Shown here: piece after piece, positions 2,413-16,768 of the stretch
How the letters are laid out: each line of letters opens with the position of its first letter
Numbering within the stretch: the stretch's first letter is position 1
Source of the DNA: Candidatus Krumholzibacteriia bacterium
Lineage (GTDB): Bacteria; Krumholzibacteriota; Krumholzibacteriia; JAJRXK01
DNA: 64,000 bases
Direction: 5' to 3'
Assembly: GCA_041484665.1 (NCBI GenBank)
Contig: JBGPIA010000007.1
Location: 132,003 to 196,002, forward strand
Translations under genes and position numbers: made by a program
Notes under the pieces: model-generated
What the model was told of the DNA's origin: nothing
Seen by the model: the letters and a program-made list of their open reading frames with translations, nothing else
Databases searched by the model: none

Positions 2413-3117
2413 TCAGCGGGAGGTCGCAGCGGCACCCTGCTCGGATCCTCCTGCGGGGCTCGACTTCGCGGAAACGGCCACCGACGGGCCAGCGGGATCG
2501 CCGACGGAGGCGCTCCCCGCGGCCATCTGCGCCATCGCCAGCGCGAGCCGGACCGTCTGCCCGATCCAGCGGGCCGGGGCTTCGCTGGCACGATCGGCAG
2601 CCTGCGGCAGCCAGCTCAGCAGATGGCGCTGCAGGTACTCCGCCCGCGCGCGGCCGATCTGCGCCAACGCCTCCCCCTGGCAGCCGCGGCGCAGCGTCTC
2701 GTCCTCCAGATGGAAGAGATGCGCCACAAACTCCAGCTGGTGTCGCAGGTGGTCTGCGGTCTCGTTGGCGCTGGAGCGCAGGCGCAGCCCAAACGCTTGG
2801 TAGAAGAGGATGTTCTCGTGCAGAACCTGCGGCACTGGACCGCGCCGGTTGTAATGCGACTCCAGCAGCGGCACCGGTGGGTGCGGCGCCCCCGCGTCGA
2901 AGGCCTCGATGTACTGGGCTTCGTACGCCTTGGCGCGCGTGGGGAGCCGCAGGGCTCCCTCGCGCTGCGGCCAGTCCGCCAGCTGCGCCAGACGCGCGAA
3001 CATGCTGCGCGTGGAGCGAGCGCTCAGCCATTCCCACTGCTGCGCGCTCGGGGCGCGGAAGAGATCGTGCATGAAGAGGAAGGCGGCCTTCAGATCGGAC
3101 GGTGCGACCGTGGTCAT
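2413..3117 (-). CDS. TorD/DmsD/NarJ-like private chaperone of a type II DMSO-reductase-family enzyme
   Basis: [34 protein letters not shown] and [11 protein letters not shown] motifs. TAATG overlap with the gamma subunit stop. Confidence 0.85.
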
Positions 3118-3878
3118 TATGGCCCCACCTCGTACCAAGTGCTGAAGTACTTCAGCCCAGCGCGCTGCTGGCGTTCGCCGTCCCAGAAGGCGAAGGCCAG
3201 CGGCGTGCGCGGCGCCGGCGCAGGCAGCTCGAGCACGACCTCCCAGCCGCCCGCCGTGCGCCGCGCCGCGCCCGGAAACGACTCGCCGGTCGGCTCCGTC
3301 GATCCGCGCCCCGCGGCGCGCAGTCGCTCGAAGCCCCGCGCGGCGTCCCAGTAGTAGAGGCTCACCGGAGCGTCCTTGTCACCCATCATGAGCGCCGGGT
3401 ACGTGGCACGCTCGCCGTCGGTCGCGGGCACCATCACGCACGCGGCGTCTGCGAAGCGCTCGATATCCATGGAGTGCTCCTTGTAGATGCGCTCGTCGCC
3501 GCCATCCGGGACGCGTTGTGGCGCGCGGGCGCGACTCTCGGTGGGATCCTGCCAGCGCAAGCGCACGAGCAGCTTGTCCTGCACCCTGGCCAGCGTCACC
3601 CAGGCGACCGGCCGCGCGCCGTCGTCGACGGGATCGCCCTCGTAGATCGGCGGGGTGAGATTCAGATGGAGCGGCGCCTCCTCCAAGCCTGTCCAGCCAT
3701 CCGCGGCATTGCGCAGCTCGTCCGCGCTGCGACCGGACGACGTCACGGACAGCACGACCGCCCCATCCTCGACCGCGGGCGTCGCCTTGGCCGCGGCGAC
3801 CGCCGCCATGGGTACGACCGCGACCAGAAGCCCAGACAGCCGGAGGATCCAGGCTGCTCGCACCTCAATGACAGCCAT
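3117..3878 (-). CDS. Heme-b gamma subunit (EbdC/SerC/ClrC-like) of the periplasmic molybdoenzyme
   Basis: Sec-type signal peptide. [26 protein letters not shown] (Met ligand), [16 protein letters not shown] (Lys ligand). Confidence 0.85.
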
Positions 3879-5082
3879 CGATGGCCTCCTTCGCTGGCGC
3901 GGGCGCGCAGCCACTCGCGCCCAGACCGCACGACGCGCATGCTCCCAGGGACGCTCTGCCGCCGCCTGCGCCCCCGCCACCTTGGCCGCTCCCGCCGCCT
4001 GCAGGAACGGGCAGCGTCCAAGGCGTCAGCGCATCGGGACCCGGCACATGGCGCCGCACCGCTCCCTGCACCTCGGCCGGCGCTGCGGTGAGCACGTCGT
4101 GGGGCACGATCCGGTAGCGCACCTGGTCGTCGCGGCCGATCAACAGTTGCAGCGCCTCGCTGCGCTCGCCGCGCTGCGCGCGCGCCAGCTCGGCCTCCAG
4201 CCGCAGGATCACGTCTGTGACCTGCGGTCCGAACAGGTATTGCAGGTATTCGAGCGGCAGACGCGGGTCGTCCAGAATGCTCTTGCCGGCGTTTCCGGTC
4301 TTGGGCGGGCTGAACGGCGGAACGTAGTAGACGTTGGGCACGGTTCCCTTCCCGGGAAACAGGCCCAAGGCCACCTTGTGCTCCAGCACCAGCTTGTGCA
4401 CCGGCGACTGCGGGTCGTCGAGCAGCCCCACGAAGCGGATGCGCCCGGGGCACTGCGCCGCGCAAGCGTTGACCTTGCCCTTCTCCAGGCGCGGGTAGCA
4501 GAAGATGCACTTCTCGCTGCGCTGCGTGACTTCGTTGTAATAGATCTTCTTGTAGGGGCACGCCTTGATGCAGTACCGATAGCCGCGGCAGCGCTCCTGG
4601 TCGATCAGGACGATCCCATCCTCCTGCCGCTTGTAGATGGCCTTGCGCGGGCACGCCTCCAGGCAGGCCGGGTGCGTGCAGTGGTTGCAGATGCGCGGCA
4701 GGTAGAAGAAGTACGGGTTGCTCGGGTCCCAGCCGCCGACATCCTCGTCCCAGTTGGGGCCCCACTGCGGGTCGACGTGGGGCATGACCGGCTTGTTCTT
4801 CCCGTCGAACAGGCGCTGGGCGTAGTCGTACTCGAACGCCTCGCCGTAGTCGGCCTTGGCCGGCAGGGGCGACGGCCGCAGGTGGCGCTGCGCGTCGAAG
4901 CCGCCGCCCAGCGTGTGCCAGCCCCGCGGGTAGCCGGCGCCCGGGTGGGTCTCGACGTTGTTCCAGTACATGTAGTCCATGCCGTCGCCGTCGGTCCATT
5001 GCTTCTTGCACGCGAGCGTGCAGGTCTGGCACCCGATGCACTTGTTCAGGTCCATGACCATCGCGTACTGGTGCGCGGACAT
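3865..5082 (-). CDS. narH: Fe-S beta subunit of type II DMSO-reductase-family enzyme (NarH-like)
   Basis: MDLNKCIGCQTCTLACK, WNNVETHPG, GPNWDED, YLPRICNHCTHPACLEACP, CRGYRYCIKACPYKKIY and EKCIFCYPR: 3x[4Fe-4S] plus [3Fe-4S]. Confidence 0.9.
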   Translation of the reverse strand: MSAHQYAMVMDLNKCIGCQTCTLACKKQWTDGDGMDYMYWNNVETHPGAGYPRGWHTLGGGFDAQRHLRPSPLPAKADYGEAFEYDYAQRLFDGKNKPVMPHVDPQWGPNWDEDVGGWDPSNPYFFYLPRICNHCTHPACLEACPRKAIYKRQEDGIVLIDQERCRGYRYCIKACPYKKIYYNEVTQRSEKCIFCYPRLEKGKVNACAAQCPGRIRFVGLLDDPQSPVHKLVLEHKVALGLFPGKGTVPNVYYVPPFSPPKTGNAGKSILDDPRLPLEYLQYLFGPQVTDVILRLEAELARAQRGERSEALQLLIGRDDQVRYRIVPHDVLTAAPAEVQGAVRRHVPGPDALTPWTLPVPAGGGSGQGGGGAGGGRASLGACASCGLGASGCAPAPAKEAIDGCH

Positions 5083-5084
5083 GC

Positions 5085-8000
5085 TCAGCTCCTCGCGGCG
5101 GGCCGCTCGTACGCGGCGACGGGTCCGGTGTAGCGCGCGACGTCGACCTTGATATCGCGGTTGTTCCCGGTGGGGCCCCAATAGTTGAGCTTGAAGTTCA
5201 GGTGCCCGTAGCCGCCCACCAGCTGGGTCGGCTTGATCTTGATATAGGTGAGCGACTGCCAGCCGCCCTGCTGGAAGCCCAGGTACTTCTCCCAGCCGTG
5301 GTACATGGTCAGGCGCCCCTTCTTCTCGCCGGGGAGCAGTTTTGCCCGGACGATGGCGTCGCCCTGGTCGTTGTGCACGCGCACCCAGTCGTTGTCGCCG
5401 ATCCCGCGCGAGCGGGCGTCGTCGGGATGGATGTAGACGATGGGCAGCCCGCGCTGCAGGCGAAGCATGTAGCGGTTGTCGCGCCAGGTGCTGTGGATCG
5501 ACCAGCGGCTATGGGGTGTGTTCCAGTAGAGCGGGTACTTGGGGTCGTCGACGGGGTCCTTGTGCACGGGGAGCTGCTCGCCGAGCTGCAGATACCAGTC
5601 ATGATCTACGTAGAACTGCTGGCGGCCCGTGAGCGTGCGCCAGGGCCGCTTGTGCTCCGTCTGGTGCGTGAAAGGCGTGTAGGCACGTCCGGGCTCGATT
5701 TCGCTGTTCCACGCCTCGGCGTCGATGGCACGGAAGCGCTGCGGGGCTTGCTGCAGCCCCTGGTAGCTCATTCCGCGCGTCTCGTCGGAGTTGGCCAGGA
5801 TGAAATTGGCGAAGGCTTCATCGGAGTCCAGCGTGCCCTCCGCCGTCCACTCCGCCGTGAGCTTCGTGAAGTCGCGTGTCCAGCCCAGGTCGTTGTCCTG
5901 GAACGGTGTCAGGCCCCGCCGCTTCGCCAACTCCTCGATCTTCTGCGCCAGCCCGTGGAAAATCTCCCAGTCCGTCCTCGACTCGAAGAGCGGATCGAGC
6001 ACCTTGCTGAACGGGTGCATGTATGAGTGGCAGTCGGTGCTGTTGAGGTCGGCCTTCTCGTAGTAGCTCGCAGCGGGCAGTACCACATCGCTGTAGAGCG
6101 CGGTCGTGTCCATGCGGAAGTTGACGTCGACGATCAGGTCGAGGTCGCGCCAAAGCGAACGCAGGATCGCCTCGTTGCCCTTCGCCTGGTTGAGGTAGTT
6201 GGCGCGCCACACGATCAGCGCACGTGGCTTGCGCGGCAGATCGTGCATCTGCGTGGGCTGGATCGCGGCCCAATCCTGCTTCGGCCACAGCGGCATCCAC
6301 TGATTGCGGACGGCCTCGAGGATCCAGTGCTCGATGGGCTTGCCGGCTACGGAGTGGGGATCCTGCATCTTGCTGTGGCAGTAGGTCCACAGCGTCGTGT
6401 TCTGGAACCGCTGCTTCTTGGGTCCCTGCGGGAAGGACAACCGCTTGAAACCGCGCTCGGGCCAGACGCGCTCCTGCCCCACGTAATGGTTGAAGCCGCC
6501 GCCGTTGCGCCCGACGTTTCCCGTGAGCGCTGCGATCAGGATCAGCGCGCGGTTGAGCAGATCGTTGTGGTACCAATGGTTGACACCGGCGCCGTGGATG
6601 ATCATGGCCGGCGCCCGCGTGAAGCCCTCGGCGAAGCTCAGCAGATCCTGCTCCGACAGCCCGCACGCCTGCGCCGCCCGCGCCGGCTCGTACAGCGGAT
6701 TGGCGAGCGTCTGCTTCAGCAGGCTGAACACGGTGGTGACCTCGACCTGGCGCTCGCCGTCCAGCGTGACGGACCAGCTGCCCGACAGCGCGGGGTCGAT
6801 CCCAGACAAGCGCAGCGACTTGCGCGCGGAGCCCATGCTGCCGGGCACAGGGGCCGGGGCCCCCTTGGCTGCGTCCCAGACGTAGAAGACGGCCTGCGGA
6901 TCTCCGGGTGGCGGTCCTTTTTCCCCCTCTGGCTTGCTGGTGCCCTCGCGCGCGCCCGCCGTCTCGCCTTTGCGCTGGGCGGCGCTTGCGCCCTTGGCAC
7001 CGCTGTTCGTCGCGCCGCCGGTCGTGGCGGCCTTTGTCACGCCCAAGCCAGCCGGCGGCTGGACGCGGCCGGCGTCCCAGTCGGCCACCGCGGGCTCCAC
7101 ACCGCGCCGGTCCGCAGGCAGATCGGCAGCGCGCAGGTACTTGCCCGTGTCCTTTCGCACCAGGAGCGGCAGATCCGTCTGCTCTTTGATGTAGGGGACA
7201 TCGATTTTGTCCTGCTCGATCAGCCAGCGCGAGACTGCGTTCGCCAGGATGGTGTCCATGCCCGGCGTGATGTGCAGGTACTGGTCGCAGTGGATGGCGC
7301 TGGCGTTGTAGTCGGGCGACACGCAGGCGACCTTTGCGCCGTTGTAGCGAGCCTCCCAGGCGAAGTGCGCGTCGGGAATGCGCGTCGCGTTGATATTGCT
7401 GCCCCACAGTACGATGTACTTGGCGTTGAACCAATCGGCGCACTCGCAGGCCTCGGTCTGTACGCCCCACGTGATGGGCTCGCCTGGGGGAAGATCGCAA
7501 TACCAGTCGTAGAAAGAGCAGACCACCCCGCCGAGGTAGTGCGCCAGCCGCACACCCGCGGAGAACGACACGGGCGACATGGCCGGAATCACCGAGAAGA
7601 ACGTATTCGTGTCCGGACCATGGCTGTAGATGTTGTCCAGGAGCTTGCCCGCGATGTGCTCCAGCGCCTCGTCCCAGCTCGCCCGCCGCCACTTGCCCTC
7701 TCCGCGTTTGCCGGCGCGGATCAGCGGATACTTCACCCGTTGCGCGCCGTAGACGTATTCGACGAAGCAGGCGCCCTTCTGGCAGCCGCGTGGGTTGTAG
7801 TCGGGCAGGTCCGCGTTGATGCGCGGGTAGTCGGCGGCCTGCTCCTCGCGCAGCATGATCCCGTCCTTGACGTAGACCTTCCAGGAGCAGGAGCCGGTAC
7901 AGTTGGCCGAGTGCGTCGAGCGGACGACTTTGTCCCAGCTGAAGTGCCGCCGGTAGAGCTCCTCCCAGCCGCGATACGGGTACGTGCGCAACGGATCGAC

Positions 8001-8291
8001 GTCGAGGATCTCGAACTCCTCCAGCGCCGCGTTCGTGGGCCGCGCCAGCAGGGCGGCGAGACCCAACCCCGCGCCCGCGCCGACCTTCAGGAAGCGGCGG
8101 CGACTCACCCCGGTGGCGGCGGTCGGCGGCCGCTCGCCCCCGCCTGCTTGCATCGTGGGATGCCCGGTCAAAGTGGGAGCGTCCGGCAGCCTGAAATGCC
8201 CTGACAGCCCGGGATCATCCGGCAGTGCAGCATCCACCGGCCTCGGGCTCGCGGCAGCGTGGGATGGGTCATGGTCGTCCATGGCGGTCAC
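5085..8291 (-). CDS. narG: Tat-exported molybdopterin alpha subunit, type II DMSO reductase family; most like periplasmic NarG-type nitrate reductase (pNar)
   Basis: Tat motif SRRRFLK. FS0 motif THSANCTGSCSW...NPRGCQKG. Asp Mo-ligand region SFYDWYCDLPPG, NarG-type HYVGQE, and C-terminal TPHSRWSIHSTW. Family is secure; substrate is inferred. Confidence 0.85.
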   Translation of the reverse strand: MTAMDDHDPSHAAASPRPVDAALPDDPGLSGHFRLPDAPTLTGHPTMQAGGGERPPTAATGVSRRRFLKVGAGAGLGLAALLARPTNAALEEFEILDVDPLRTYPYRGWEELYRRHFSWDKVVRSTHSANCTGSCSWKVYVKDGIMLREEQAADYPRINADLPDYNPRGCQKGACFVEYVYGAQRVKYPLIRAGKRGEGKWRRASWDEALEHIAGKLLDNIYSHGPDTNTFFSVIPAMSPVSFSAGVRLAHYLGGVVCSFYDWYCDLPPGEPITWGVQTEACECADWFNAKYIVLWGSNINATRIPDAHFAWEARYNGAKVACVSPDYNASAIHCDQYLHITPGMDTILANAVSRWLIEQDKIDVPYIKEQTDLPLLVRKDTGKYLRAADLPADRRGVEPAVADWDAGRVQPPAGLGVTKAATTGGATNSGAKGASAAQRKGETAGAREGTSKPEGEKGPPPGDPQAVFYVWDAAKGAPAPVPGSMGSARKSLRLSGIDPALSGSWSVTLDGERQVEVTTVFSLLKQTLANPLYEPARAAQACGLSEQDLLSFAEGFTRAPAMIIHGAGVNHWYHNDLLNRALILIAALTGNVGRNGGGFNHYVGQERVWPERGFKRLSFPQGPKKQRFQNTTLWTYCHSKMQDPHSVAGKPIEHWILEAVRNQWMPLWPKQDWAAIQPTQMHDLPRKPRALIVWRANYLNQAKGNEAILRSLWRDLDLIVDVNFRMDTTALYSDVVLPAASYYEKADLNSTDCHSYMHPFSKVLDPLFESRTDWEIFHGLAQKIEELAKRRGLTPFQDNDLGWTRDFTKLTAEWTAEGTLDSDEAFANFILANSDETRGMSYQGLQQAPQRFRAIDAEAWNSEIEPGRAYTPFTHQTEHKRPWRTLTGRQQFYVDHDWYLQLGEQLPVHKDPVDDPKYPLYWNTPHSRWSIHSTWRDNRYMLRLQRGLPIVYIHPDDARSRGIGDNDWVRVHNDQGDAIVRAKLLPGEKKGRLTMYHGWEKYLGFQQGGWQSLTYIKIKPTQLVGGYGHLNFKLNYWGPTGNNRDIKVDVARYTGPVAAYERPAARS

Positions 8292-8294
8292 TTT

Positions 8295-9920
8295 CTATCG
8301 GGTCTGCGCGCCGGCCGGCGCTGCCGCCGTGATGTCGGGTGCACTGGGCGCCGCGGCGGGCGCCCTGGGAGCGACCGAGGGCGTGGTCGAGAGCGCCGTC
8401 ATGTCCTGACCGGCGGGCGCTCCGATCCGGCGCAGGAAGGCGATCAGGTCGTCGAGTTGCGGTTCCTGGAAGCCGCCCTCCGCAGGCGCCACAGCGAGGA
8501 ATGCGGGCATGGCCGTGTTCCGCCGGCCGAAGGCGATGGTGGCGTACAGGAAGTCGTCGCTGGCGTAACGCTGGAGCGCAGGCGCGACCAGCGACGGGCC
8601 CAGCCTCCCCTCGGCCGACAGTCCGTGGCAGCCCGAGCACTGCTTGGCGAACAGGGATGTGCCCCGCCGCGCGTCGCCACGCGCCGCGCGCGGATGGCTG
8701 CGGATGGGCGCCGTGGCCGCGGTCTGCGTCGCGTCCAGCTCGCGCCCCAGCAGGGTGCTGGCCAGGCGCAGGATCTCCTCCTCGCTCAACCCTCCGGCGG
8801 CCGCTCCCCACGCCGGCATGATCGTCCCGGCGCGCCCCTCGCGGATGTTGGCGGCCACGTACGCGGGCTCGGCGATCCGTTGGTAGGTCTCGCCGCGGAT
8901 CGCGGGGATGAACCGCGCGAAGAACTTGTCGTAGCGTCCGTAGATCCCCGTGTCGTGGCAGCTCTGGCACAGATCGGCGTAGAGCTGGTCGCCGCTGCGC
9001 GGCTCCGGGTGTTGGACGCGATAGAGGGCCAGGTGCTTGAGCGGGCTCAGGTACGATTTCGGGAGGTCACGCTGCTGCAGCGACAGCAGGAACGCGGTCA
9101 GCGCCGTTCGCTCGTCGCGGCTCAGGCCCGGGGTGGGCATCTGGCTGCCGGCGACGACCTGACGCGGATCGTCGAAGTGCTCGATCAGCCATTGGGCCAG
9201 GGTGTGCGGGCCCTGCACGTGGCCAAAGGGGAGCTGCCCGCGGACCTTGAGCCCCTCGTTGTCGAGAGCGGGCCCCAGACTCCCGCCCAGGCCGTCGAGC
9301 TTGTGGCAGCTGCGGCACCCCTTGGACACGAACAGCGCCGCGCCACGGGCGTATACCTCGCCTCCGCGTTGGGCCACCTCGGCGGGCGTGTGGCAGATGC
9401 CGCAGGAGGACTGCGTCAAGTCCAGCGGAAGCAGCGGGTAGTCCCAGTGCCGGTCCTCGGCCTTGGCATCGGCGAAGTTGGTGGCCGCTCCCTGCCCGCG
9501 GTGGCAGATCGTGCAGCCGAACCGCGCGTCTTCGTGCCACTGCAGATAGGCGCCGGGGTGCGTGCGGTATGGATTGGGGACGTCGGTCATGCGCGGATCG
9601 TCGTAGCCGGTGTGGCAGCTGACGCAGCGGTCCATCACACCCAGGTCCGCAACGACGATCTGGCGCAGCTCGACGACGTACTGGTCGGCGAGCTTGCGCC
9701 CCCAGTCGTCGCCGGCCTTCTGTCGCAGGATCTGCCCGTACTCGAGCTGGTGCCGCCGCCAGGTCGGCCGCAGGTTTTCCTCGACTGCGGCGTAGATCAG
9801 CACGCCCACCGTGGCCAGGCTCACGGCCAAGAGCCAGAGCTTCACCGCGCGGTCCCGCCGCAGCGCCTCCGCACGTACCGCCTCGGCGATCCCCAGGATG
9901 TCCTTGCCGTTTGCGCTCAT
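8295..9920 (-). CDS. Membrane-anchored hexaheme cytochrome c
   Basis: N-terminal TM helix and six CxxCH motifs (CVSCH, CTICH, CGICH, CRSCH, CQSCH, CSGCH). The last three are each followed by an MP distal-Met motif. Confidence 0.9.
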   Translation of the reverse strand: MSANGKDILGIAEAVRAEALRRDRAVKLWLLAVSLATVGVLIYAAVEENLRPTWRRHQLEYGQILRQKAGDDWGRKLADQYVVELRQIVVADLGVMDRCVSCHTGYDDPRMTDVPNPYRTHPGAYLQWHEDARFGCTICHRGQGAATNFADAKAEDRHWDYPLLPLDLTQSSCGICHTPAEVAQRGGEVYARGAALFVSKGCRSCHKLDGLGGSLGPALDNEGLKVRGQLPFGHVQGPHTLAQWLIEHFDDPRQVVAGSQMPTPGLSRDERTALTAFLLSLQQRDLPKSYLSPLKHLALYRVQHPEPRSGDQLYADLCQSCHDTGIYGRYDKFFARFIPAIRGETYQRIAEPAYVAANIREGRAGTIMPAWGAAAGGLSEEEILRLASTLLGRELDATQTAATAPIRSHPRAARGDARRGTSLFAKQCSGCHGLSAEGRLGPSLVAPALQRYASDDFLYATIAFGRRNTAMPAFLAVAPAEGGFQEPQLDDLIAFLRRIGAPAGQDMTALSTTPSVAPRAPAAAPSAPDITAAAPAGAQTR

Positions 9921-9929
9921 GGCGACACC

Positions 9930-11486
9930 TCAGTGGACGGGCCAGCGCGAGCTGCTCCAGTAGAAATCCCAATTGGGGCCGCGCAGCTGCGAGCCCACGT
10001 ACGTCAGCACGACGAATCCGGCCAAGAAACACGAGAACAGCGCGATCGCGGACATACGTGTCGAGCCGGTGCGCCGCAGCGCGCCCAGCGACCACAGCGC
10101 GTACGCCAGCGTGAGCAGCGTGCCGGGATTGACGAAGATGATCAGGAGCTGCGGCGCGTGGGGGAACCAGCTGCGAATCCAGCCGAACTCCACCGGGACG
10201 GCCACCGCGAGCGCGGCCGCAGCCAGGCCGAAGATCAAGCTCTGCACCGCCATGCGCCGGCCGCGCGGGCCGCTGAACCAGATTCCCGGCTCCTCCCGCT
10301 CACGGTCGAGATACGGGATCAGCGCCAGCCCGAGCACCACGATGGCGGGGATGACCAGCCCGCCCATGAACGCCGAGTAGGAGACCATCTCCTGCAGGCC
10401 CAGGAAATACCACGGCGCCTTCGCCGGGTTTTCCGGGATGCTGGGGTTGGCCAGCTCCTTGAGCGGCGCGTCGAACCGGATGCCAAGCACCGTGACCAGC
10501 AGCATGGTGCCCATGAAGACCAGCAACTCGGCGCGCAGCAGGAACGGCCAGCTGGGCAATGTGTCGGCGGGATCGAGGTTGGTGGCGGGCGTGCGGTCGC
10601 GCACGATGCACATGAGACCGTAGGTCTTGCGCGGCGATTGCTCCGGGGCGGCCGGGGGCGTCCCCGCCACGGCGGCGCCCTTGCCCGCCGTGGTGACCGC
10701 CACGCCTGGGCGCGCCAGGCCTCCATCCTTGCGCAGGCGCCAGAAGTGCACGCCCAGAAGCGCCACGACCGAGAGCGGCAGGATCATCACGTGGAGCAGG
10801 TAGAAACGGATCAAGGCCTCCTGTCCGATCTCGCTCGCGCCCAACAGCAGCTGTTTGATGAAACCGCCCGGATCGAGCACGGACGTGATCCCCACGGCGT
10901 CGGTCAGCTCGCGCGGTGAGGCGGCGATGTTGCTGCCGATGGTGATGGCCCAGTAGGCAAGCTGGTCCCAGGGCAGCAGGTAGCCAGTGAACGACAGCCC
11001 CAGCGTGAGCACGAACAGCCCCATCCCCACCAGCCAGTTGAACTCGCGGGGGGCTTTGTAGGCGGCCGTGTAGAACACACGCACCATGTGCAGGATCACC
11101 GCGATCACCATCAAGTGCGCCGCCCAGCGGTGAATGTTGCGGATGAAGCGTCCGGTGGGCACGACGTAGTGGATGTCCTTCATGCTCTGGTAGGCCGCGT
11201 CGGTCGCGGGTTTGTAATAGACCATGAGCAGGATCCCGGTCGCGACGAGGATGGCGAACAGCGAGGCGGTGGCCACCCCCAGCGCCATGGTCGTGGAGAA
11301 GCGCAGCGTGCGGATGTGCACGCGAGTGGCGTGCAGGTGCAGGAATACGTTTCCGAACACCGCCTGGCTGCGGCTGCGATCGCTCACGGGCGGTCCCTGC
11401 CGCACCAGCGACTCCTTGAACGTGCGCGGCAGCGCCCGCAGGTTCGCGCGGAAGAGGGCCAGCCCGGCCGGGCCGATGGCGGTCAT
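9930..11486 (-). CDS. Cytochrome b of a Rieske/cytochrome b complex (b6-like plus subunit IV-like in one chain)
   Basis: RNIHRWAAHLMVIAVILH, PREFNWLVG, FTGYLLPWDQLAYWA, RFYLLHV...GVH; Qo-loop NPAKAPWYFLGLQE. Confidence 0.92.
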   Translation of the reverse strand: MTAIGPAGLALFRANLRALPRTFKESLVRQGPPVSDRSRSQAVFGNVFLHLHATRVHIRTLRFSTTMALGVATASLFAILVATGILLMVYYKPATDAAYQSMKDIHYVVPTGRFIRNIHRWAAHLMVIAVILHMVRVFYTAAYKAPREFNWLVGMGLFVLTLGLSFTGYLLPWDQLAYWAITIGSNIAASPRELTDAVGITSVLDPGGFIKQLLLGASEIGQEALIRFYLLHVMILPLSVVALLGVHFWRLRKDGGLARPGVAVTTAGKGAAVAGTPPAAPEQSPRKTYGLMCIVRDRTPATNLDPADTLPSWPFLLRAELLVFMGTMLLVTVLGIRFDAPLKELANPSIPENPAKAPWYFLGLQEMVSYSAFMGGLVIPAIVVLGLALIPYLDREREEPGIWFSGPRGRRMAVQSLIFGLAAAALAVAVPVEFGWIRSWFPHAPQLLIIFVNPGTLLTLAYALWSLGALRRTGSTRMSAIALFSCFLAGFVVLTYVGSQLRGPNWDFYWSSSRWPVH

Positions 11487-11504
11487 GATCGCGTCCTCAT
11501 CTCG

Positions 11505-11972
11505 CTAGCCCGCAAAGAAGGTTTCGGGGGCGACCTCGCGCTTCGCGTCCACCAGCAGGCTCCCATCGGCCGCGCGCGATACCTCCAGCCAGCGCAGCCC
11601 GCGCGGCGCCGGGCCGCCTACCACCGCGCCCTGCGCGTCGAAGCGCGAGCCGTGGCACGGGCAGCGGAAGCCGTCGGGGGTCTCGCCCACGATGCATCCC
11701 AGGTGGGTGCAGACCAGCGACATGGCCGCGACACCTTTGGCCGTCGAGACGATCCGCACGTTGCGCTCGGGCAGGACGCGCACCGTGCCGGCCGCGTACT
11801 GCTCCAGGCGGCCGATGCGGAAGCGTGAGCCGGCCTCGGGCAACAGCCGCGGCCTTGGCAGTCGCGCCATGCCGTGCAGCGATCCCAGGACCGCCGCGGC
11901 GGCGCTCAGCAGACCCGCCAGGCTCAGGAAATCACGGCGCGGAATCGGCGCGGGCTCTAGGCGACCTGACAT
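11505..11972 (-). CDS. Rieske [2Fe-2S] protein
   Basis: Tat signal/anchor PRRDFL; boxes CTHLGC and CPCHGS. Start moved to ATG 11972. Confidence 0.93.
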   Translation of the reverse strand: MSGRLEPAPIPRRDFLSLAGLLSAAAAVLGSLHGMARLPRPRLLPEAGSRFRIGRLEQYAAGTVRVLPERNVRIVSTAKGVAAMSLVCTHLGCIVGETPDGFRCPCHGSRFDAQGAVVGGPAPRGLRWLEVSRAADGSLLVDAKREVAPETFFAG

Positions 11973-14014
11973 ACGAGCCTCTCCTGGAAGAGGAAGCGTT
12001 CCATGGTGATGGCCCCCGTGGGGCAGCGTTGCGCGCACAACGCGCAGCGGATGCAAATGGTCTCGTCCTTCACGATGGCCGAGGCCTGCCCGGGGGGGAC
12101 GCCGGCCAGCTGTGTGGCGAGCACGTCGGACAGGCGGTCTCGGCCGTGGCTCGCGCTGCCGGCAGCGCTGTCCTTTGCAGTGCCGGCCGCGCTGGCAGCC
12201 GCGATGCTGGCTGCGCTGGCAGCCGGGGTCGGGACTGCACTGGCAGCTGGGCCGCCCACTGCGGCACCGTCCGCGGCACCGTTCGCGGCGGGGACCAGCC
12301 GGTCGACCGACACGATGCGTAAGCACAGCTGCGGGCAGACGTCCACGCAGCCGCCGCAAAGGATGCACTTGTCGCCGTCGAAAATGGTGTTGACGCCGCA
12401 GTCCAGGCAGCGTGACGCCTCGCGGTGCGCCTGCGCGTGCGTGTAGACCATCTCCACGGGAGAGCTTTGGGAGGCCAGCCGCGCCTTCGGAGTTGCGGTC
12501 GGCACCGCGACGCGTCGCGTCGTCTCGTAGCTGGCCTCCCGCAGGTAACCGGGAAGCGCCAGGTGCAGCTCCACATCGCGCGGGGCGAGTGTCCGGCCGG
12601 TGACGGCCCGGTAGATCTCCCGGGCCACCTGCTTGCCCGAGGCCACGGCGTGGATTAGGAGCTTGGGCCCATAGGCGAGGTCGCCAGCGACGTAGAGCCC
12701 CGGTGTGCGCGTGGCGCCGGTGACCGGGTCGCACGCGATTGTCCCGCGCGGCGTCAGCTCGACGGCGTCGCGCTGCGCGTCGACGAAGCGCAGGTCGACC
12801 TCCTGGCCGATCGCCAGCAGTACCGTGTCGCAGGGGATCGTCTCGCGCACGCTGTCGTCGAAGAGGGGCGCGAAGCGGTGGCGCTCGTCGTACACCCGCG
12901 TGCACGGCCGGAACACGACCCCGGTCACGCGTCCTTGCGCATCCTGCTCGAGCTCGACGGGGCCGAGGCCGTTGCGCCGGACGATCCCCTCCTCGTCACC
13001 CTCGAGGATCTCCACGTCGTCGGCGGGCATCTCGGCAAGCGACTCCAGCGAGCAGAGCGTCACGGTGCTGACCCCGGCCTCGCGCAGGGCCGTGCGTGCC
13101 GCGTCGAGGGAGATCTGACGCAGCACCGTGCGGCCGACGTCGTAGGCCACGTTGCCGCCGCCGATCACCACGACGCGCCGGCCGAGGGGTACTTGGCGGC
13201 CCAGGGCAATGTCGCGCAGGAACTCCACGCCACCCAGCACTTCCGCGGCACCGGCGCCAGGGATGGGCACGCGGCGGGAGCGTTTGGCGCCCACCGCGAC
13301 GATCACCGCATCGTGGCGCTGGCGCAGCTGCGCCAGCGAGATGTCCTTACCTACCTCGCAGCTGGTGACCGCCCTCACGCCCAGCGCCTCGATCACGGCC
13401 ACCTCGGCCCGGATCAGGTCGCGCGGCAGGCGGTACTCCGGCACTCCGATCGAGAGCATGCCGGCCAGCACCGGCTCCATCTCGTAGATCGTGACGTCGA
13501 TGCCCAGCAGCGTCAGGTCGTGCGCCGCGGCGAGCCCGGCGGGCCCGCTGCCGATGATCCCCACCGACTTGCCCGTGGCGAGCGGGACGTCGCCCGCCAG
13601 CAGCGACTGCAGGAGCGGCAGCAGCTCCTCGGCACCCGTGCACGGCTGCGCGTCGGGTCGCCGCTGCGCGGCGCGGCGCGCGGAATCCTTGAGGAAGTCG
13701 ATCAGGCCGCGGCTGACGTCGGGATGCGCCTCGGGACCATACCGCTCGCAGACGAAGCGCTTCAGCGCTCGGATGGCGATTGGTCGGTCGAGCTCGCCGC
13801 GCCGGCACGCGAGCTCGCACGGCGCGCCGCAGATGCGGCCGCAGATGGACGCCAGCGGGTTCGGACCGCGGGCGATCAGATATGCCAGCTCGAGGTCGCC
13901 CTCGGCGATGGCGCGCACGTAGCCGCGCGCATCGGTGTGCACGGGGCAGGCCGCCTGGCATTTGATCTGGCTCTTCCAGTAATCGAGGTCGGGGATGCGT
14001 ACCGGCACCGTCAT
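11957..14014 (-). CDS. GltD/NfnL/SudA-like FAD-dependent NAD(P)H oxidoreductase with C-terminal 2x[4Fe-4S] ferredoxin
   Basis: CQAACPVH...ICGRICGAPCELACRR, IIGSGPAGL, GVPEYRLPR, VIGGGNVAYD, EASRCLDC, CILCGGCVDVCP and CIRCALCAQRCP. No signal peptide. Start could be as far up as 14221. Confidence 0.88.
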   Translation of the reverse strand: MTVPVRIPDLDYWKSQIKCQAACPVHTDARGYVRAIAEGDLELAYLIARGPNPLASICGRICGAPCELACRRGELDRPIAIRALKRFVCERYGPEAHPDVSRGLIDFLKDSARRAAQRRPDAQPCTGAEELLPLLQSLLAGDVPLATGKSVGIIGSGPAGLAAAHDLTLLGIDVTIYEMEPVLAGMLSIGVPEYRLPRDLIRAEVAVIEALGVRAVTSCEVGKDISLAQLRQRHDAVIVAVGAKRSRRVPIPGAGAAEVLGGVEFLRDIALGRQVPLGRRVVVIGGGNVAYDVGRTVLRQISLDAARTALREAGVSTVTLCSLESLAEMPADDVEILEGDEEGIVRRNGLGPVELEQDAQGRVTGVVFRPCTRVYDERHRFAPLFDDSVRETIPCDTVLLAIGQEVDLRFVDAQRDAVELTPRGTIACDPVTGATRTPGLYVAGDLAYGPKLLIHAVASGKQVAREIYRAVTGRTLAPRDVELHLALPGYLREASYETTRRVAVPTATPKARLASQSSPVEMVYTHAQAHREASRCLDCGVNTIFDGDKCILCGGCVDVCPQLCLRIVSVDRLVPAANGAADGAAVGGPAASAVPTPAASAASIAAASAAGTAKDSAAGSASHGRDRLSDVLATQLAGVPPGQASAIVKDETICIRCALCAQRCPTGAITMERFLFQERLVCQVA

Positions 14015-14046
14015 CGCCGCGGCGGCGTGGGACGGCGGAGCGGAGC

Positions 14047-14114
14047 CTGGTGGCAGTCCGCCGGCGTGGGGCGGCAGAGCGCACTCTGGTGGCAGTCCGC
14101 CAGCGTGTGGCGGC
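14047..14114. repeat. Direct repeat, 2 x ~29 bp at 39-bp spacing
   Basis: ctggtggcagtccgccggcgtggggcggc at 14047 and ctggtggcagtccgccagcgtgtggcggc at 14086. Confidence 0.8.
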
Positions 14115-14272
14115 GTCCCCCGCGCCGCTCCCGAATCGCCGGACGCGCCCGCACGATCTGGCCGGCCGGCCGGCCGGGGCGCGCCTCCCCCTGCAGATGG
14201 AGCTGGCTCTCGAAGGGCCAAGGCTCCTCCTCGCCGCCCCCGGCCGCGCCGGCAGCCGAGCCGCGGGCGGCG

Positions 14273-15463
14273 CTACCGGGTTACCGCGGGCGGCGCTTGC
14301 GTGCGCGGCCCAACGGCGCCGCCCGCGCTCTGCGCCCCGCCGCCGGGCGACTCGCCGCGCCCGCTGTGGTCGTTGCCACCCCGGCCATTCACGGCGGGGT
14401 GGCCGTACTGCGCGCCGTGGATGTCCTGGATGCGCTCCACGTACTCGCGGTCGCCGATCCCGTTGCGCCACAGCCCTGCGGCGCGCGCGCCCGCGTAGCC
14501 GGCCACGAACAACAACACCACGGCCGTGGCGTAGGTCAGCACACCGATGCGCCGCCCGCCCGCGTGGATCGTGAGCGTGTCGCTCACCGGGCAGACCGCG
14601 ACGCAGTCGAGGCACCCGGTGCACTCGGCACTCAGCAAGGCGCCCGCGGTGGAGACCGGCAGACGCGCCATACAGACCTTGTCACACAGCTTGCAGTCGA
14701 TGCAGCTGGCCGGCGCGCGGCGCACGCGCACGGGCGAAAGCCGCGAGAGCAGACCCAAGAGCGCGCCGTAGGGGCACAGATACCGGCACCACAATCCCTG
14801 CACGAAGACCGACGCGACGACCAGCACCAGAAGTGTGATGCCCGCCGTCCTGCCCAGTTGGGCGAAGAACAGCGCCATCTTCACGTCGGCGACCCGGTTG
14901 TAGGGTGACTCGAGGAAGAAGCGCAACTCGACTTGGTGCATGGCCGCGATCGAGTAGGCGAAGAAGGCGAGCAACAGGTACTTCAGCCCGCGCAGCGGCA
15001 CGTCCAGAGAGCGCCAGATGCGGAAGTTGCGCCCGAACAGCCTGCGGCCCACCCGCGCCAACGCCTCGGACAGGAAGCCCACCGGGCAGATCCACGCGCA
15101 GAACGACTTGCGCAGCAGGAGCGCCAGCGCAGCGGCGATCAGCAGCAGGATCGTGGCCGCCGGGTGGATGCGGTTGAGCGTCCCCTGGTGGACCCAGTCG
15201 ACCAGCCCCATGAGGCCACTGATGGGCAGGAAGCCCTCGACGCCGGGAGGCCGCACGGGCAGCGGCAGGGCTCCCTGCTGGGCGGCGCGGTAGAACTGGG
15301 CGAACTGGACTCCCAGCAGCACGCACGTCGCGGCGAACGCCGACTGCACGAGCAGGCGCGCGCGCCACGAGCGGTCGGCTTTGCGGCCCGTGCGGCCGCC
15401 GAGCCACGCGCGCAGGGGGAGGTGGGGGATCGAGGCGGGCAACGTCTGGAGCAGGTGTCTCAT
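14273..15463 (-). CDS. yccM: YccM-like (NapH/MauN family) membrane polyferredoxin
   Basis: RPPGVEGFLPISGLM, KSFCAWICPVG, DVKMALFF, WCRYLCPYGAL, CIDCKLCDKVC and ECTGCLDCVAVCP, colinear with E. coli YccM motifs as I recall them. Confidence 0.85.
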   Translation of the reverse strand: MRHLLQTLPASIPHLPLRAWLGGRTGRKADRSWRARLLVQSAFAATCVLLGVQFAQFYRAAQQGALPLPVRPPGVEGFLPISGLMGLVDWVHQGTLNRIHPAATILLLIAAALALLLRKSFCAWICPVGFLSEALARVGRRLFGRNFRIWRSLDVPLRGLKYLLLAFFAYSIAAMHQVELRFFLESPYNRVADVKMALFFAQLGRTAGITLLVLVVASVFVQGLWCRYLCPYGALLGLLSRLSPVRVRRAPASCIDCKLCDKVCMARLPVSTAGALLSAECTGCLDCVAVCPVSDTLTIHAGGRRIGVLTYATAVVLLFVAGYAGARAAGLWRNGIGDREYVERIQDIHGAQYGHPAVNGRGGNDHSGRGESPGGGAQSAGGAVGPRTQAPPAVTR

Positions 15464-15526
15464 GGCGCTCCCTGCGGCGGCGGTCCGCGCGGGGTCGCGC
15501 TGCGCCAACCGGTCGAGAGCAAAAAT

Positions 15527-15548
15527 AGGATATCACGGTCCAGATATC
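15527..15548 (-). promoter_or_regulatory. Candidate Rrf2 operator upstream of the respiratory operon
   Basis: AGGATATC-ACGG-TCCAG in an AT-rich patch 64 bp upstream of the yccM start; the same motif occurs at 16454. Confidence 0.55.
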
Positions 15549-15756
15549 AAAAGAAACTTGGCGCAGCCTTGCCGGCTCGGTGCGCGGGCCTCGCCGGACG
15601 GCGGACCGCCGGCGCACAGATGTCCGGAATCGATTGCCGTGGATAGACTTCAACGCTGGTGTCGGCCAGCCCTCCCGCTGGAAACCCAGGCTCGTCGTCT
15701 AGACCTTGACTGTTTACCCGGGGAAACCGCGGCGCGGGGGCGGCGGAGGGGAGACC

Positions 15757-16311
15757 CTAGCTCCCCGAGCCGTGCGGCTTCCGGCGCGGCGACCGCGAGC
15801 CGCCCCGGGAGCGATCCAGCGCGCGGGACCTAGGCGGCGGCGCGGGGGCATGGCGTGCCGCTTTGGGTGGCGCGTCTGGAGTCCCGCTCTCGCACAACGG
15901 AGAGCTGGCACCGGGGCCTCGATCGCGCAGGACGTCGGCGACGGTCGAGGTGGCGAAGACGCGCTCGACCTCGGCAATCGCGCGGTCGAGGCGCTGATGC
16001 AGCAGGCACAGGTTCGCTCCGTGCATCTCGATCCCCAGGGGGCACTCGCGGATCCGCTGCAAGGGATCGACCACATTGATGACGTCCAGGATCGACAGTT
16101 CGCGCGGCTCGACCGCCAGCACGAAACCCCCGTGCAGTCCACGCTGGGAGCTGACGTAACCGGCTCGGCCGAGGGACTGGAGGACTTTCGAGAGATAGTC
16201 CGCCGGGACCTTCGTGCCGCGGGCGATCTGCCGCGTGGTGTGCGCCGCTTCGCGATGGGCGGCAAGCCATACGATCGCGCGCAGCGCGTACTCGGCGGTC
16301 TGGGAGAACAC
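15757..16311 (-). CDS. Rrf2-family transcriptional regulator
   Basis: FSQTAEYALRA, YLSKVLQSL, SQRGLHGGF, CPLG..HG.NLCLLH. GTG start at 16311. Confidence 0.92.
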   Translation of the reverse strand: MFSQTAEYALRAIVWLAAHREAAHTTRQIARGTKVPADYLSKVLQSLGRAGYVSSQRGLHGGFVLAVEPRELSILDVINVVDPLQRIRECPLGIEMHGANLCLLHQRLDRAIAEVERVFATSTVADVLRDRGPGASSPLCESGTPDAPPKAARHAPAPPPRSRALDRSRGGSRSPRRKPHGSGS

Positions 16312-16470: not shown

Positions 16471-16768
16471 TTTATGCCGAGCACCGTGGAGGGCAAGCGG
16501 CAAGTCCGGCGCCGCAGCATGGGGCGGCAGTCGAGGGCGGCGAGCGATCCGCGCTGCAAAGAGCGAGCGATGCAGGTGGTGACCGGCGCGAGGAGCATGG
16601 ACCCAGCCGGGGCCGCTACCAAAAAAAGCCAACGATTGGCATGCGGCCGGAATGCGGGTATGGTGGCGGTCGTTGGCCGTGCCTCGCTGCCTGCCCCGCC
16701 GCGGCCGCCGTCACTGCCCTCCCCGGCCCTTCGGCCCGCCCGCCCTCTGGTCGCCGCAGGAGGCGACA

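Follow-up and report, generated by a model that had tools for sequence, protein, structure and literature searches.

The DNA considered here is a stretch of 64,000 nucleotides (nt) from a Candidatus Krumholzibacteriia bacterium (assembly GCA_041484665.1, contig JBGPIA010000007.1), called the window below; all coordinates are positions within it. Its subject is an operon on the minus strand, running from a flavoprotein gene to a chaperone gene, whose products resemble a periplasm-facing nitrate reductase (pNar) on one side and a Rieske/cytochrome b complex equipped with a flavoprotein on the other. In order of transcription the eight genes encode (i) a cytoplasmic GltD/NfnB-like NAD(P)-FAD iron-sulphur (Fe-S) flavoprotein with Fer4_20, Pyr_redox_2 and two Fer4 domains (11957..14014); (ii) a Rieske [2Fe-2S] protein (11505..11972; Pfam Rieske) with the box CTHLGC...CPCHGSRF; (iii) a cytochrome b of 518 residues in which b6 and subunit IV are fused (9930..11486; Pfam Cytochrome_B); (iv) a membrane-anchored hexahaem cytochrome c with six CxxCH motifs (8295..9920; Pfam Cytochrome_CBB3 three times and Cytochrom_C); (v) alpha, a 1068-residue molybdoenzyme of the type II dimethyl sulfoxide (DMSO) reductase family (5085..8291); (vi) beta, a NarH-like protein with four Fe-S clusters and a Fer4_11 match (3865..5082); (vii) gamma, a soluble periplasmic haem b protein of the EB_dh/DMSO_red_II_gam type (3117..3878); and (viii) a NarJ/TorD-type assembly chaperone (2413..3117). 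The initial annotation had described nine open reading frames (ORFs) here, these eight and a YccM-like gene in front of them; all nine lie on the minus strand, and their coordinates are borne out.

The genes are tightly packed. The flavoprotein and Rieske genes overlap by 16 nt, gaps of 18, 9, 3 and 2 nt separate Rieske from cytochrome b, cytochrome b from the hexahaem gene, the hexahaem gene from alpha and alpha from beta, and beta overlaps gamma by 14 nt and gamma the chaperone gene by 1 nt. These exact junctions agree with the overlaps of 1-16 bp and gaps of 2-18 bp first reported for the eight genes. Corrected starts lie at 11972 for the Rieske protein and 5082 for beta, and the start of gamma was taken at ATG 3878. 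The flavoprotein most likely begins at ATG 14014, which is M70 of a longer ORF running to 14221, because the conserved alignment begins there; this gives a protein of 685 residues. Hydropathy analysis found no real membrane segment in the flavoprotein, alpha, beta or the chaperone, and a single N-terminal helix in each of the Rieske protein, the hexahaem protein and gamma, which fits the proposed topology of the operon products.

The arrangement recurs with striking regularity. A scan for relatives of alpha, one genome per species, gave 219 confirmed relatives, and the best 80 were kept, corresponding to 78 distinct loci with alpha identities of 59-78%. The flavoprotein, Rieske, cytochrome b and hexahaem genes stand in the same order at all 55 loci that extend at least 6.5 kb upstream of alpha; beta, gamma and the chaperone are present at all 57 that extend at least 3.2 kb downstream. 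The complete set of eight, identically ordered, was found at 52 of the 78 loci, and the other 26 are all truncated by contig ends. The eight-gene arrangement is far beyond chance, and the expectation that the flavoprotein and the Rieske/cytochrome b genes would be kept beside the molybdoenzyme in other genomes has held at each of these 55 and 57 loci. The YccM-like gene does sit in front of the operon as first described, but it is not a member of the conserved unit, having one weak match, on the opposite strand, across the 78 loci. The flanks are likewise unconserved: the commonest flank family, the Rrf2 regulator, occurs at 14 of the 53 loci that hold both ends of the core. Since the gene order is invariant and neither the YccM-like gene nor the flanks are conserved, we regard the eight genes as a self-contained cassette.

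The carriers among the 78 loci are all metagenome-assembled genomes (MAGs), with labels spanning about ten phyla, some of which may reflect mis-binned contigs. Most are labelled Terriglobia or other Acidobacteriota, and those labelled Eisenbacteria come closest (75%). Further labels are Ignavibacteria, Zixibacteria, Hydrogenedentota, Omnitrophota, Armatimonadota, Myxococcota/'Deltaproteobacteria', Phycisphaerae and Gemmataceae, with single bins of Dormiibacterota and Acidimicrobiaceae. The sequencing runs that hold the window stretch number 24; all are sediment-metagenome DNA, and no RNA run is among them.

Two of the enzyme subunits score above the curated cut-offs of their family models. Alpha scores 1111.3 bits against TIGR03479 (cut-off 984.75) and beta 492.5 bits against TIGR03478 (cut-off 480.7). 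The best family matches of the other two proteins fall below cut-off, gamma with 85 bits against TIGR03477 (cut-off 169.85) and the chaperone with 93.1 bits against TIGR03482 (cut-off 152.3); gamma also matches PF09459 below cut-off (29.2 bits) and the chaperone matches PF02613, Nitrate_red_del, with 53.7 bits. Against solved structures alpha scores 892 (5e7o) and 888 (4ydd) bits with PcrA, 528 with E. coli NarG, 383 with EbdA and 210 with Kuenenia NxrA (7b04_B). Among annotated plasmid records it matches best the NarG proteins of Haloferax volcanii and H. mediterranei, which share 47-49% of their residues with it across 86% of the length. Haloferax NarG, NarH and Orf7 are the closest annotated relatives found for alpha, beta and gamma, NarH being 56.6% identical to beta and the Orf7 homologue 32% identical to gamma.

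Alpha carries a twin-arginine signal, SRRRFLK, at residues 63-69, and both the arginine pair and the wider SRRRF motif are at least 95% conserved in 65 homologues. The motifs HSANCTGSCSW and FYDWYCDLPP, invariant in 18 rows and at least 95% conserved in the 65 homologues, are by their sequence the NarG-type FS0 motif and the region of the molybdenum-ligand aspartate; their Haloferax NarG counterparts read HSVNCTGSC and FYDWYSDLPPG, so that FYDWY(C/S)DLPP is common to both proteins, as is HYVGQE. The glutamate of the last motif (NHYVGQE in alpha, at least 95% conserved; DHYVGQE in Haloferax NarG) aligns with PcrA chain position 461 in all 65 homologues. We take the PcrA gate residues to be Phe164, Tyr165, Asp170 and Trp461, with roles reportedly described by Youngblut et al. 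in 2016. The 5e7o chain carries Glu at position 461 and scores slightly above 4ydd against alpha; presumably it is the W461E variant of PcrA. The PcrAB structures and the operon alpha are alike as short periplasmic type II enzymes with Phe-Tyr...Asp around the molybdenum ligand; the operon differs in having Glu for Trp461, a gamma subunit and a dedicated Rieske/cytochrome b complex, and its genome has no chlorite dismutase (Cld) gene. Gamma, which has one N-terminal hydrophobic segment, a signal peptide and no membrane anchor, is of the EB_dh type in place of membrane-bound NarI and is accompanied by a TorD/NarJ chaperone, as in the pNar layout. Alpha thus appears pNar-like, and the enzyme is most likely a periplasmic nitrate reductase, neither a perchlorate reductase nor a nitrite oxidoreductase (NXR). 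Perchlorate reductase was rejected because Glu replaces the gate Trp and a Cld-family gene is lacking, and an NXR identity was rejected on the low score with 7b04_B beside those with PcrA and NarG.

Two further observations concern alpha. Residues ~392-470 (window ~7000-7115) form a low-complexity insert rich in Ala, Gly, Lys and Pro that is absent from PcrA and unconserved among the 65 homologues. Elsewhere, a genome of 47% GC (G036; G, C and L numbers are our handles for genomes, contigs and loci) encodes at L134:6842-14170 a 910-residue alpha-like protein, 49-53% identical to the window alpha, together with beta and chaperone genes, directly behind a ClC chloride-channel gene. The L134 cluster contains no Rieske/cytochrome b genes, and the YDWY.D motif was not found in it by pattern; the same genome has two flavoprotein matches of the Rieske/cytochrome b-associated type.

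The other half of the operon also has conserved cofactor-binding residues. The flavoprotein has an N-terminal domain with two [4Fe-4S] clusters (Fer4_20) and a C-terminal ferredoxin domain with two more, and all its Cys motifs, together with Arg663 (in CAQRCP), are invariant in 56 homologues. Its best solved relatives are NfnABC (9bov/9bp5, 276 bits), followed by StnC, NfnB and GltD. The Rieske protein has a twin-arginine signal anchor (RRDFL) and the box CPCHGS.F in 66 of 66 homologues; its best solved matches are 9rk4, which is Kuste4569 (70.9 bits), and 9rk3, which is Kustd1480 (54.2 bits), ahead of the b6f Rieske protein (52 bits). Cytochrome b has nine hydrophobic segments in a 4+5 arrangement with the four haem-ligand His residues conserved, and its best solved matches are to cytochrome b6. 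The hexahaem protein consists of a trihaem part and three class-I cytochrome c domains behind one transmembrane segment (28-46), with CxxCH motifs at residues 99, 136, 173, 202, 318 and 428 that are all conserved in 71 homologues. A Rosetta-stone fusion of the flavoprotein with a membrane partner was sought, and the candidate, an ORF of ~1,090 residues at L128, was dropped as it carries no recognisable extra domain.

Two known systems invite comparison. The first is the Haloferax mediterranei cluster, which runs Rieske (narB), cytochrome b (narC), a small ORF, narG, narH, the EB_dh-related Orf7 gene and the TorD-like narJ, and so shares with the operon both the Rieske/cytochrome b pair and the complete enzyme. 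In the accepted haloarchaeal model a Rieske/cytochrome b complex feeds a periplasm-facing Nar (Baymann et al. 2012). The Haloferax cluster has neither a flavoprotein nor a c-type cytochrome, whereas the operon has both. Haloferax NarC is 28.5% identical to the operon cytochrome b and lacks its His50 and WR.RKDGG motifs. In Haloferax NarB the Rieske box reads CPCHFGKF, with Gly at the Ser position, a replacement linked to low potential (Baymann et al. 2012); a low potential is thus predicted for NarB, whereas the operon protein retains Ser (CPCHGSRF). The same work groups the haloarchaeal complex with those of Actinobacteria and Thermus/Deinococcus, from which we take the haloarchaeal and operon Rieske/cytochrome b proteins to be of different lineages.

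The second is the pair of complexes encoded by Kuste4569-4574 and Kustd1480-1485 in the anammox bacterium Kuenenia stuttgartiensis. Like the operon, these combine a b6-type cytochrome b, a five-helix subunit IV (Hauser et al. 2025, PMC12954380) and a GltD-like Fe-S flavoprotein, and a multihaem cytochrome c replaces cytochrome f. The operon cytochrome b shares 49% identity with Kustd1481 and 48% with a paralogue encoded in its own genome; for the flavoprotein and Kustd1483 the figure is 33%, across 673 residues. Hauser et al. (2025, PMC12954380) identify 9rk3 as Kustd1480, use the NfnABC template family for the Kuenenia reductases and report Rieske potentials of +303 and +335 mV (Kustd1480 = +335). 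The Kustd1480 box is CPCHGSGF, and by this likeness the operon Rieske protein would be of the high-potential type. In their AlphaFold3 models Kustd1481 His62 ligates an additional haem b where the two cytochrome b protomers meet; Arg266/Lys267 and Arg550 of the reductase lie close to the propionates of this haem, which provides a route to four Fe-S clusters and FAD (Hauser et al. 2025, PMC12954380). The equivalent residues are present in the operon family: His50 occurs in all 66 filled rows, Lys253 in all 68, Arg252 in 66 of 68 and flavoprotein Arg663 in all 56. The complexes are alike in the proposed extra-haem ligand, its charge partners and the high-potential-type Rieske box. These putative extra-haem residues also occur in stand-alone and NXR-linked orthologues and are absent from Haloferax NarC.

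The operon departs from the Kuenenia complexes in several respects. It places the flavoprotein first, fuses cytochrome b with subunit IV and occurs in hosts other than anammox bacteria. For a high-potential partner it encodes a molybdoenzyme in the same operon, where Kuenenia has an octahaem HAO-like protein or an unknown partner. Kuenenia cytochrome b has the haem c_n cysteine (CxGG), which is found in 0 of 66 filled rows of the operon family and in none of the stand-alone paralogues, the window protein reading TMALG against WCMGG in Kustd1481. On identities and motifs, the Rieske/cytochrome b half belongs with the flavoprotein-bearing complexes of Kuenenia and falls outside the NarB/NarC lineage of haloarchaea. 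The proposal in the initial annotation that the locus combines both designs is accordingly retained in part: a pNar-type enzyme does stand with a flavoprotein- and hexahaem-bearing Rieske/cytochrome b complex, but a kinship of the latter with NarB/NarC does not survive. As identity, motifs and the Rieske redox-tuning residue all differ, the haloarchaeal resemblance of this half is one of layout and not of shared descent.

The Rieske/cytochrome b-flavoprotein module is also found with other partners. The window's own genome holds a stand-alone paralogue on contig C12 (G000; L085:10364-17096, minus strand), with genes for a flavoprotein (42% identical), a Rieske protein, split cytochrome b6 and subunit IV, a 731-residue multihaem protein and a monohaem cytochrome c, and with no molybdoenzyme behind it at L085. 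A few kb downstream of this paralogue there is an ORF for a group II intron reverse transcriptase/maturase (L085:1143-2951, minus strand). A sample of 401 Planctomycetota genomes was also examined, through which the Kuenenia cluster was also reached (locus L127, with a Rieske protein 100% identical to PDB 9rk3). Seventeen of the 401 have a flavoprotein orthologue of at least 54% identity, and the context of the module was determined in 11 of these. One (G001) has a pNar-type alpha; in eight (G077, G144, G362, G059, G201, G294, G380 and G334) an NxrA-type alpha follows 4.5-6 kb downstream, with contig and strand the same; and behind two (G325 and G095) there are long multihaem cytochromes only. 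Modules without a molybdoenzyme occur at L085, L128, L129, L130 and L132.

The NXR-linked modules, which are uncharacterised, follow the operon closely. At L131 (3248-15242; G334) and L133 (G362) the order is flavoprotein, Rieske, cytochrome b, multihaem c, alpha, beta and gamma, with the same His, RKDGG and CPCHGS.F motifs. Identities to the operon are 51-60% for the flavoprotein (51-53% at L131/L133), 60-62% for cytochrome b and 47-49% for the Rieske protein. Their alpha, by contrast, belongs to the Kuenenia NxrA lineage (870.7 bits to 7b04_B, full length) and is ~25% identical to the operon alpha, and their cytochrome has seven CxxCH motifs where the operon has six. A quick maximum-likelihood tree of the flavoprotein places the pNar-linked rows in one clade (SH-aLRT 98), which also holds NXR-linked (G334, G362) and unlinked (G325, G095) rows; Kustd1483 falls outside it on a long, compositionally deviant branch whose placement is loosely supported. 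A single origin of the pNar fusion was dropped for this reason, and partner swapping is preferred because NXR-linked and unlinked rows share the clade. The module is not specific to pNar. As its orthologues join NxrA-type enzymes or cytochromes only, it looks like a plug-in that has repeatedly recruited nitrate/nitrite enzymes, and the comparisons give a picture of a module coupled to nitrate/nitrite molybdoenzymes of two lineages and, in the case of Kuenenia, to a protein of the HAO-like kind. Such partner exchange across two enzyme lineages is an independent indication that its preferred high-potential partner is the nitrate/nitrite couple.

We propose, and give an even chance to, the view that the eight genes act as one quinol:nitrate oxidoreductase, in which a pNar-type enzyme is joined to a flavoprotein- and hexahaem-bearing Rieske/cytochrome b complex. 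Nitrate respiration is the likely function of the operon, judging from the enzyme's relatives and motifs. Menaquinol would be oxidised at the outer quinol site, and the first electron would pass through the Rieske protein, the hexahaem cytochrome, the haem b of gamma and the Fe-S chain of beta to molybdenum, where nitrate would be reduced to nitrite in the periplasm. The second electron would cross the membrane through the two b haems and reach the flavoprotein, instead of or besides reducing quinone at an inner site. On this route it would pass an extra haem b at the interface and then four Fe-S clusters before arriving at FAD, from which NAD(P)+ would be reduced. The energy for this uphill branch and for charge separation would come from the very positive nitrate/nitrite couple, and the inward electron would also build membrane potential. 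For Kuenenia the downhill branch was put at about 450 mV and the uphill one at 250 mV (Hauser et al. 2025, PMC12954380), and these energetics would carry over to nitrate as the nitrate/nitrite couple is, we reason, as positive as nitrite/NO. The substrate, the association of the two halves, the direction of the flavoprotein and bifurcation itself are what we infer from these comparisons, the quinol-to-NAD(P)+ branch by analogy with Kuenenia. It is possible, if rather doubtful, that the whole operon family is a hard-wired quinol-bifurcating machine making NAD(P)H inside the cell as well as membrane potential, with the module a plug-in that recruited pNar and NXR enzymes independently.

Several points weigh against the proposal of a bifurcating quinol:nitrate oxidoreductase, although we rank it first. 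Its weakest step is the direction of the flavoprotein, since modules of the GltD/NfnB type normally take electrons from NAD(P)H. Because the haem c_n cysteine is absent, the inner-side chemistry must differ from that of the modelled anammox complexes. On the enzyme side, alpha scores overall as high against perchlorate reductase as against any nitrate reductase, and the gate residues and the identity of the 5e7o variant used to separate the two are assumed here. Nor is there a clear sink for the nitrite produced. The window's genome shows neither NirK nor NirS, and its NrfA (Cytochrom_C552) match is marginal, 25.6 bits against a cut-off of 24.1, at the C-terminus of a 1061-residue multihaem protein. 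The gene for this protein is on contig C2 (L088:8602-18177, minus strand), with NrfC-like and NrfD-like genes downstream and other ORFs between; it is an unproven candidate for the nitrite sink. Four other carriers resemble the window's genome in NirK, NirS and NrfA content, which argues against a full denitrifying or ammonifying role.

If the flavoprotein worked in the opposite direction, as an input, NAD(P)H would be oxidised at FAD, its electrons would travel by way of the Fe-S chain and the inner haems to reduce quinone at an inner site, and the operon would encode a self-contained, proton-motive NAD(P)H:nitrate oxidoreductase with an internal Q cycle. We consider this unlikely but a serious rival. 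The closest solved relatives of the flavoprotein (NfnABC, StnC, NfnB and GltD) exchange electrons with NAD(P)H, in GltD the electrons of NADPH flow inward, and carriers with a heterotrophic life, Terriglobia for example, would have NAD(P)H to spend and no need to make more. Electrons fed into the inner b haem would, however, compete with the electron from the outer site unless there is an inner quinone site that works. The haem c_n that marks this site in b6f-type complexes is absent from the operon cytochrome b, and neither Hauser et al. nor Kartal et al. made out a clear site of this kind in the Kuenenia relatives. A high-potential-type Rieske box suits the pushing of the second electron to a very low potential. 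The missing haem c_n and the Rieske box together make us lean against the input direction.

It is rather improbable that the two halves are merely co-transcribed, as separate entities linked by diffusible electron transfer, with the flavoprotein serving an unrelated role such as redox sensing or repair. Soluble type II enzymes such as Ser, Clr and Ddh obtain electrons from free cytochromes c, and gamma, with its signal peptide and without a membrane anchor, would suit such an arrangement, as would the modules that lack a molybdoenzyme. The synteny within the alpha clade is nevertheless absolute and the genes have overlapping stop and start codons, and the recruitment of an NxrA-lineage enzyme by the same module points to a dedicated functional pairing. 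Moreover, even this explanation accepts electron flow from the module to the enzyme.

We find it highly unlikely that the true substrate is another oxyanion, chlorate, perchlorate or selenate, used for respiration or removed for detoxification. The best solved match of alpha is indeed PcrA, and chlorate is a side activity of Nar-type enzymes (PMC12769810). Against this stand the Glu of the NarG/pNarG type in place of the PcrA gate Trp in all 65 homologues and the distribution of chlorite dismutase: no Cld-family gene (PF06778) was found in the window's genome (5.45 Mb, 93.65% complete) or in three of four other carriers, and the one in the fourth is on a different contig. The recurrent neighbours of the cassette are also of a nitrate/NO kind and not Cld. 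Operation in reverse as a nitrite oxidase, with nitrite electrons coming in by alpha-beta-gamma and the hexahaem cytochrome and the Rieske/cytochrome b-flavoprotein part serving reverse electron flow, has very little to commend it: nitrate/nitrite type II enzymes are reversible and the sister arrangement carries an NxrA-type enzyme, but alpha is pNar-like with a far lower score to Kuenenia NxrA than to PcrA or NarG, reverse running with a low-potential flavoprotein would be expected to consume NAD(P)H, and the carriers are not labelled as known nitrifier groups and the runs holding the stretch come from sediment.

The surroundings of the cassette were surveyed at the 53 loci that hold both core ends. 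Besides Rrf2, hemerythrin-domain proteins flank it at 10 and 9 of the 53, an NnrS-like protein (below the Pfam cut-off) at 10, Crp/Fnr-type regulators at 9, MobB-MobA at 5 and a multihaem PF13447 protein at 3. The Rrf2, hemerythrin, NnrS-like, Crp/Fnr and MobAB neighbours are of a kind typical of nitrate/NO regulons. In the window itself an Rrf2-family regulator lies upstream (15760..16299, minus strand; PF02082, 97.4 bits). The YccM/NapH/NosR-like gene (14273..15508, minus strand) encodes a polyferredoxin membrane protein with four hydrophobic segments, two Fer4_5 matches and a dicluster domain (TIGR02163, 84.6 bits, below cut-off). Just upstream of it a consensus scan alone gives a sigma-70-like promoter match, TTGATA-17-TATTTT (15522..15550, minus strand); the scan returned 2 sites against 0.7 expected from shuffles. 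With the flavoprotein start at 14014, a spacer of 258 nt (14015-14272, minus strand) separates the YccM-like gene from the operon. It contains a ~36-nt tandem direct repeat (..GGCGGACTGCCACCAG..), which may be a remnant or else a site for a regulator. YccM/NapH-like genes, 26-31% identical to that of the window, also lie a few kb from orthologous modules at L129, L130 and L132 in Planctomycetota, which may reflect a loose accessory association. On the plus strand a divergent ORF of 639 residues (16652-18571) has weak, below-cut-off matches to radical SAM and B12-binding domains.

Initially, no characterised example of the complete combination had been known, and no paper describing it has come to light. 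In the available portions of the literature consulted (including Dibrova 2017, Arshad 2015, Castelle 2013, Kublanov 2017, Baymann 2012, Lücker 2013 and Hauser 2025), an operon joining a bacterial pNar or NXR to a flavoprotein-bearing Rieske/cytochrome b complex is not described; the supplements, Kartal 2013, de Almeida 2016 and ten Brink 2013 could hold a mention. According to Dibrova et al. (2017), genes for similar oxidoreductases are neighbours of cytochrome b genes 'in many other cases'. The Zixibacteria RBG-1 'NXR' and the Caldithrix Nap-Rieske/cytochrome b clusters were set aside, as the literature describes different enzymes in different layouts. What is added here is the split of the two halves by lineage, the conserved extra-haem residues, the missing haem c_n, the contrast in the Rieske redox box and the census of partners in Planctomycetota.

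Haloarchaea are described as having a periplasm-facing Nar that receives its electrons from a Rieske/cytochrome b complex, and the same has been proposed for Methanoperedens, whereas the Nar of characterised Bacteria is turned towards the cytoplasm and works without the bc complex (Baymann 2012). MAGs labelled Terriglobia, Eisenbacteria, Ignavibacteria, Myxococcota, Planctomycetota and others commonly encode a bacterial pNar together with a bc-type complex of its own, and surveys of nitrogen-cycle genomes limited to NarG/NapA contexts may mis-score the carriers. The operon names an exergonic partner, probably nitrate, for a Rieske/cytochrome b complex that bears a flavoprotein; of the two such complexes in Kuenenia, one has a partner that is unknown (Hauser et al. 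2025, PMC12954380). The quinol-to-NAD(P)+ mechanism has so far been proposed for anammox bacteria alone and never shown, and a tractable carrier would allow quinol-driven NAD(P)+ reduction to be tested outside slow-growing anammox cultures. Were the branch to run in reverse, the operon would encode a compact NAD(P)H:nitrate oxidoreductase with Q-cycle coupling, which is likewise undescribed. If bifurcation is correct, the mechanism proposed for anammox bacteria would be a widespread third operating mode of Rieske/cytochrome b complexes, present in soil and sediment and across many phyla.

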